Of a DNA stretch of 2,770 nt, positions 1,593 through 1,904 are shown one piece after another (within the stretch, counting starts at the first letter, position 1; each line of letters starts with the position of its first letter). A program made the position numbers and the translations under genes. The stretch is from a virus (lineage: Duplodnaviria; Heunggongvirae; Uroviricota; Caudoviricetes): IMG/VR virus record IMGVR_UViG_2654587571_000017; one strand, given 5' to 3'. Under the pieces are notes generated by a model. The model made no database searches. It worked only from the letters and a program-made list of their open reading frames with translations, and was not told where the DNA came from.

Positions 1593-1904
1593 ATGAACAA
1601 GAAAACCAAACGAACCTTCACCCCTGAGTTCAGGCTGGAATGTGCACAGCTGATTGTTGATAAGGGCTACTCATATCGACAGGCCAGTGAAGCGATGAAT
1701 GTCGGTTCAACCACGCTTGAGAGCTGGGTACGCCAGCTCAGGCGAGAGCGCCAGGGTATTACGCCCTCTGCCACACCCATTACTCCAGACCAGCAACGTA
1801 TCCGCGAGCTGGAAAAGCAAGTTCGCCGTCTGGAGGAACAAAATACGATATTAAAAAAGGCTACCGCGCTCTTAATGTCCGACTCGCTGAACGGTTCACG
1901 ATAG
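1593..1904 (+). CDS. IS3-family transposase OrfA (DNA-binding HTH plus leucine-zipper regulatory protein; N-terminal part of the OrfAB transposase)
   Basis: ATG at 1593 preceded by AGGTGA (1583-1588). The 1557 start in the ORF track is a GTG inside the inverted repeat and is less likely. The translation [55 protein letters not shown]...[34 protein letters not shown] closely resembles recalled IS911 OrfA, including the C-terminal [15 protein letters not shown] block. The stop is TAG at 1902-1904. Confidence 0.9.

Follow-up and report, generated by a model that had tools for sequence, protein, structure and literature searches.

The window analysed here, the whole 2,770-nt stretch taken from the virus record IMGVR_UViG_2654587571_000017 (Caudoviricetes), carries phage genes followed by an insertion sequence (IS), whose features are collected in Table 1. 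We detected an identical stretch in the genome of E. coli PS1Thumoskin9, inside an e14-like prophage with the gene order iraM, icd fragment, mcrA, pinE, tail fibre, tail-fibre assembly gene and IS. The insertion point of the element is the tail-fibre assembly gene of this prophage. The 3′ end of that gene is broken by the IS, and its frame now stops inside the left end of the IS (window 1511-1550). A further sequence of the phage part, TTCTGCATTTTCATAAACGTTGGTTTGGGAGAA at about 712-745, is one that we take to resemble the 26-bp crossover sites of the Hin/Gin/Cin/Pin invertases. It lies barely past the start of the C-terminal tail-fibre ORF and adjoins the invertase gene. No inverted partner for it was found within the 7.3 kb of locus L001; the second site of the invertible segment may have been lost.

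Table 1. Genes and sequence features of the window (positions count from its first nucleotide)
Feature	Position	Strand	Remarks
Pin-type DNA invertase	107-697	minus	Pfam Resolvase E = 1.8e-51
gp53-like tail fibre, C-terminal part	688-1101		
Tail-fibre assembly gene	1113/1122-1550		
Insertion sequence, IS3 family, ISEc31-like	1521-2770 (window end)	+	Two insertion contexts compared
orfA, 103 codons + TAG, HTH DNA-binding protein, zero frame	1593-1904	+	HTH_Tnp_1 E = 1.9e-15
SD-like GGAGG inside orfA (codons CTG GAG GAA)	1832-1836	+	
ATT, -1 (orfB) frame, possible weak OrfB start	1850-1852	+	Directly before heptamer
Slippery heptamer A_AAA_AAG	1853-1859	+	In orfA register
orfB part of OrfAB, 303 codons + TGA (2768-2770), HTH_21 + rve DD(35)E	1859-2770	+	
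Candidate 133-nt branched fold, closed by CGCG.UC / GA.CGCG	1865-1997	+	Unsupported
Stretch homologous by position to IS911 junction	1866-1922	+	MFE -9.9 kcal/mol, z +0.56
Local 8-bp hairpin UGACAGCC-ACAC-GGUUGUCA	1918-1937	+	Starts 58 nt after heptamer

The left end of the element, TGTAGTGGCACAC..., lies at 1521 and its right end, ...TTGACCACTACA, 8 nt beyond the window, giving a total length of 1258 bp. The terminal inverted repeats are imperfect and of the TG...CA type, TGTAGTGG at 1521 on the left and CCACTACA on the right (seen in loci L001 and L002); they agree at all of their first 8 nt and, overall, at about 19 of 26 positions. The copy in the e14 context is flanked by GCG on the left and AGG on the right, so that the 3-4 bp target-site duplication is absent, and it is likewise absent from the other copy compared, that of E. 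coli 55989, which lies between a GTPase gene fragment and ypjA/ehaD and has the flanks GGG and GTG. Such flanks are consistent with adjacent deletion or recombination in both copies, as a trait of the copy and not of the family. On the right of the element in L001 (4272-4290) stands a phage gene that has been cut short, and after it come head-tail genes read from the other strand, an arrangement that points to a deletion or inversion associated with the IS in the e14-like prophage. The element belongs to the IS3 family: every testable defining feature was found, the one exception being the target-site duplication, which the two examined copies lack.

At the DNA level the element is 92-93% identical to copies that carry the name ISEc31 in NCBI annotation and about 64% identical to ISEc52 and IS911. 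Its OrfB shares 96% identity with a protein named 'ISEc31 family transposase' (P0115); the initial protein search returned near-identical E. coli copies only, and this name was all that it added. The element or its close variants are present in 2416 of 5426 complete E. coli genomes, and 938 of the matching records, chromosomes and plasmids, contain a copy of at least 99% identity. Copies of 99.5-100% identity occur in three or more distinct settings on chromosomes and plasmids, at up to 17 places per genome, and the element has therefore been mobile recently. In RefSeq the same gene is already entered under WP_085968792.1 as 'IS3 family transposase, programmed frameshift', a CDS in two pieces in which 1178 nt plus one re-read base make 393 codons from the ATG of orfA at 1593. 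The literature on ISEc31 that we retrieved consists of resistance-genomics surveys listing its name, and no experiment on the element was found there. The frameshift site discussed below is thus already known as a textbook mechanism in a catalogued and very common E. coli IS; annotation pipelines already model it, and its value for discovery is small.

Downstream of AGGTG, which lies 5 nt before its ATG, orfA runs to TAG 1902-1904. About half of the database models start at GTG 1557 (404 aa) and not at ATG 1593 (392 aa); a good Shine-Dalgarno (SD) sequence precedes only ATG 1593, which also matches the IS911 start. The orfB frame is -1 relative to orfA, which it overlaps by 184 nt. It is open from 1721 to TGA 2768-2770, and the first ATG, GTG or TTG in it is TTG 2024, well inside the protein; the full set of OrfB domains consequently needs recoding. 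Pfam identified rve (E = 5.3e-27) and HTH_21 (1.5e-08), together with rve_3 and rve_2, in the OrfB part, where the DD(35)E motifs appear in the translation as WCGD, HSD and, 35 residues further on, MER. The conceptual 392-aa fusion matched NCBIfam transpos_IS3 along its whole length with 360.6 bits (cutoff 160 bits). These results agree with the initial annotation, which had described a -1 frame open for 303 codons through a complete DDE domain, with no stop codon between 1859 and 2024.

The only Rfam match in the window, where the search returned no frameshift-element family, was isrC (RF01387), which aligned at full length to the 5′ end of orfA (1589-1711, + strand) with 150 bits against a gathering score of 39. 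An sRNA of Salmonella, isrC has been described as island-encoded, Hfq-binding and located between envF and msgA (PMC2330248). The match covers the ribosome-binding site of orfA and its first 40 codons, so RF01387 appears to model the 5′ end, or a remnant, of an ISEc31-like orfA.

Within the overlap orfA is read ATA TTA AAA AAG, which phases the heptamer as A_AAA_AAG, the zero-frame register that had been claimed for it from the start. The orfB frame across the same nucleotides is ATT AAA AAA GGC, and GGC 1859-1861 is the first codon after slippage. No other in-register X_XXZ_ZZN heptamer is present in the 184-nt overlap. The bare heptamer occurs three times in the window (both strands) against 0.68 expected, a count that 6 of 200 shuffles reached. 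By count alone it is unremarkable; its position, register and conservation make it non-random.

It is instructive to follow the heptamer through the relatives of the element. The scan across species yielded 80 loci, from Enterobacterales, Vibrionaceae, Alteromonadales and others, whose OrfB identity is 54-94%; with the E. coli loci added, they gave 62 distinct sequences, aligned without gaps on the heptamer. A_AAA_AAG was found in 58 of the 62, A_AAA_AAA in two and G_AAA_AAG in two. This retention gives good support to -1 slippage producing OrfAB. The variants sit in otherwise intact relatives (L028 and L050 from Shewanella, L031 and L045 from Vibrio and Photobacterium), and in G_AAA_AAG only the A-site tetramer A_AAG is still shifty. 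The IS911 copy of E. coli BL21 (L005, 721-735) has ATTAAAAAGG, with one A fewer, and is still annotated 'programmed frameshift'.

The two elements upstream of the heptamer are less constant in the alignment. The ATT triplet arises from the orfA codons ATA TTA (Ile-Leu) and varies with their synonymous choices; it precedes the heptamer in 39 of the 62 sequences, while TTT, TCT, CCT, ACT, CTT or CAT stands there in the other 23, so AUU-initiated OrfB is not a conserved trait of the family. The GGAGG lies 13 nt before ATT, as the initial annotation had counted, and 16 nt before the heptamer itself. Scored by the definition of PMC4066793 over its 6-17 nt interval, SD-like motifs take several forms among the relatives. 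GGAG at 11 nt before the heptamer occurs in IS911, in L062 and in six distant relatives, AGGA close to the motif in 14 relatives, and 26 relatives, including ISEc52 and the Yersinia/Rahnella group, have no SD-like motif in this interval. GGAGG at 16 nt is confined to the ISEc31 clade, apart from L031. As far as the aligned sequences indicate, the heptamer is the conserved core of the site, and AUU and SD are lineage-specific.

In the ISEc31 clade, represented by 11 distinct sequences (10 fetched loci and the window), both GGAGG and ATT are invariant. The clade members are more than 90% identical (80% for the most distant, L017), so the invariance of GGAGG says nothing about selection. A plasmid search for diverged members, at about 80-93% identity, returned pseudogenes only, and with no intact members in that range an analysis of synonymous sites in the SD would be without power. 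The predicted duplex of GGAGG with the 3′ end of 16S rRNA has -9.3 kcal/mol, against -6.4 for the GGAG of IS911. According to a review (PMC5009743), internal SD sequences stimulate -1 shifts at a spacing of 9-14 nt, and PMC4066793 cites 6-17 nt as the experimentally stimulatory interval; by the counting of the latter paper, the SD of the window comes to 16-17 nt (GAGG and GGNGG 17, AGGA 16) and so stands at the edge of that interval. The distal GGAGG is a plausible frameshift stimulator.

Its second possible function, starting OrfB, looks different. A distance of 13 nt between SD and start codon is at the far limit of initiation in E. coli, and AUU is a poor start codon. OrfB initiation at AUU 1850 is therefore doubtful.

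Downstream of the heptamer, folding of the next 100 and 141 nt gave z-scores of +0.69 and -1.34, with no significant structure, in agreement with the initial annotation, which had seen no convincing stem-loop immediately 3′ of the heptamer. The published rules for IS3-family hairpins (PMC4066793) place the start 4-10 nt after the motif, the length at 17-140 nt, a G-C pair at the base and the ddG/nt threshold at 0.09. With these rules we recovered the three-way junction of IS911 (57 nt, starting 7 nt after the motif, -19.5 kcal/mol) and its counterparts in ISEc52, in L052 and L022, and in Yersinia, Photobacterium and other relatives. When the junction was threaded over 43 sequences outside the clade, 80% of cells were paired and five pairs had changes on both sides; slid controls all scored lower. 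The same 57-59-nt stretch has z-scores of -1.9 to -3.4 in the IS911-type sequences and of +0.5 to +0.9 in the window and its clade, and the ddG/nt is +0.12 to +0.13 in the former against -0.073 for the homologous 57 nt of the window. Its basal helix is paired in 74% of cells in the IS911-type sequences and in 42% in the ISEc31 clade. By folding, shuffles and threading, then, the IS911 three-way junction is not formed in the window or in its clade, and the basal helix has been lost. One plasmid-borne IS911-like copy (L006, 524-545) has a 3-nt insertion, GCTAC-AAC-CGCG, between heptamer and junction stem.

Other candidates for a downstream stimulator were examined in the window. The 133-nt branched fold is the sole structure there that agrees with the published search rules; L012 has another structure that passes them, and L017 has none. 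The ddG/nt of -0.007 and z of -1.34 of the 133-nt fold led us to reject it as a demonstrated stimulator; in RNAalifold across the clade, moreover, none of its 38 pairs showed a compensatory change, and its closing stem is broken in L017. We also rejected a 5-bp stem shifted by 2 nt, CGCUC/GAGUG, which is present in ISEc31 and has four pairs in the window, where it is no stabler than shuffles. The local 8-bp hairpin is stable, is the only element of the centroid fold and can be formed in most clade members; it is probably too distant to act alone as a classical stimulator. Judged by hairpin rules, folding, covariation and ddG, no downstream stimulator has been demonstrated in the window.

How, then, does the site compare with systems already described? 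ISEc31 (IS3 family, IS3 group) is the closest. Its frameshift region is identical (GGAGG, 13 nt, ATT, A6G), and it likewise has no IS911-type junction; the two differ by about 7-8% of DNA positions, and RefSeq calls the version of the window only 'IS3 family transposase'. At 1915 the window has A where ISEc31 has G (CUGAGUG to CUAAGUG), which leaves one pair fewer in the weak 5-bp stem.

IS911 is the experimentally characterised model, with an SD, A_AAA_AAG, a three-way junction and AUU-initiated OrfB. It shares with our element the family, the gene layout, the heptamer, the preceding ATT and similar terminal repeats, and the 30 nt after the heptamer are near-identical (GGCUACCGCGCUCUU.AUGUC.GACUC), with about 57% identity in OrfB. 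The differences lie in the stimulators. The GGAG of IS911 stands 11 nt from the heptamer and 8 nt from AUU, against 16 and 13 nt for GGAGG in the element; its junction has -19.5 kcal/mol, z -2.56 and ddG/nt +0.123, against -9.9 kcal/mol, z +0.56 and -0.073. Both the SD at 11 nt and the three-way junction are stimulators in IS911. ISEc52 and its relatives from Yersinia, Rahnella and Cedecea (L004, L052 and others) have the same heptamer, ATT or TTT before it and the same gene layout. They retain the junction (z -1.9 to -2.8) and have no SD-like motif within 30 nt, the opposite combination to that of the element. Outside the family, E. coli dnaX resembles the site in joining A_AAA_AAG to an upstream internal SD-like stimulator (PMC6815119, PMC5009743). 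In dnaX, unlike the element, a strong simple stem-loop follows at a short distance, the SD stands at about 10 nt, and frameshifting yields a product shorter than that of the zero frame, whereas the element yields a longer one.

These comparisons bear on the rival readings of the site. In the strongest of them the window would contain a full IS911-type cassette, whose SD stimulates frameshifting and also drives an OrfB start at AUU 1850, with an undetected structure downstream. We regard this as unlikely. SD-like motif, AUU and A6G are all present in the right frames, and GGAGG is the stronger anti-SD partner, but both spacings are 5-6 nt off those of IS911; the 16-17 nt to the heptamer fall just inside the wider interval quoted above from PMC4066793, and 16 nt fall outside the narrower range quoted from PMC5009743. 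The invariance of GGAGG and ATT in the clade is uninformative at such identity, ATT is missing in 23 of 62 relatives, several of which have GGAG at the IS911 position, and the three-way junction is absent. Of four sequence-level features of the IS911 cassette, the element thus lacks two, the SD spacing and the junction. An IS911-related -1 recoding site, as the initial annotation had it, stands on gene layout, in-register heptamer, the transpos_IS3 match and the RefSeq label. Its statement that the IS911 arrangement is reproduced holds for the heptamer and ATT and fails for the SD distances and the junction: since the spacings differ, the arrangement is similar and not the same. Of the two roles that it assigned to the SD, stimulation is plausible, at the edge of the effective range or outside it, and initiation at AUU is doubtful, with ATT in only 39 of 62 relatives.

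It is far less probable that the element is a decaying relic with a heptamer that no longer functions. The copy in the window has no target-site duplication and adjoins a rearranged prophage, and many relatives (L007, L008, L011, L018) are degenerate, but both frames of the element are intact with all catalytic motifs present, and identical copies are spread over several contexts and plasmids.

Productive transcriptional slippage in bacteria goes with longer runs, of about nine or more residues. We consider it hardly credible that RNA polymerase brings orfA and orfB into one frame by adding an A in the homopolymeric A run at the junction, although transcriptional realignment is assumed for several IS clusters (PMC4066793), because the run is only six A long, the relatives keep a phased heptamer ending in G, as tandem tRNA slippage predicts, and IS911, with the same A6G, has been proven experimentally to shift in translation (PMC4066793, PMC5009743).

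The nucleotides 1853-1859 are thus very probably the programmed -1 ribosomal frameshift site of an intact ISEc31-like insertion sequence of the IS3 family. Most ribosomes that start on orfA at 1593 would end at TAG 1902 and release OrfA of 103 aa. In a minority the tRNA-Lys on AAA in the P site and that on AAG in the A site would both re-pair one base back, and reading would resume at GGC 1859 in the orfB frame. The predicted product is the 392-aa transposase OrfAB (...NTILKK/GYRALNV..., the stroke marking the junction), in which the N-terminal HTH would be joined to the DD(35)E catalytic domain. Only the upstream GGAGG is a plausible stimulator; it may pair strongly with the 3′ end of 16S rRNA at an unusually long spacing, and a downstream structure like that of IS911 presumably plays no part here. 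A separate OrfB from AUU 1850 is possible and would likely be very weak.

How often would the shift take place? In E. coli reporters few motifs shift as readily as A_AAA_AAG (PMC4066793). Table S3 of that paper gives its efficiency as 0.29% when no stimulator is present, 4.26% when both stimulators of IS911 are, and 39% when it is combined with the pseudoknot of IS3. By analogy with these reporters the efficiency in the element is probably low, between about 0.3% and a few percent (4.3%), and its place in that range would depend on whether the distal GGAGG acts. As no downstream stimulator is demonstrated, it might be near the unstimulated level, which is low for an element that has clearly spread.

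Tentatively, and with more doubt than confidence, we suggest that stimulators turn over within the IS911/ISEc31 group while the heptamer stays fixed, the ISEc31 clade having lost the junction and carrying only a stronger SD, placed 5-6 nt further upstream. Such turnover is apparently the one mildly new point here. If the distal SD is the sole stimulator, this widespread and evidently mobile element would show in nature an SD that promotes -1 shifting from a spacing at the accepted limit or past it; alternatively, transposition could be sustained by nearly unstimulated frameshifting. The junction-less clade offers a handy natural construct for how far upstream an internal SD still stimulates -1 shifting.

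A small discrepancy concerns the junction peptide. Slippage on the heptamer predicts ...NTILKKGYR..., as the initial annotation had written it. Two NCBI-derived proteins (P0002 and P0115) read ...NTIFKKGYR... at this place, which corresponds to re-reading of T1852. The difference between IFKK and the mechanistically expected ILKK is a one-residue (Leu/Phe) annotation artefact, with the shift placed one codon early.
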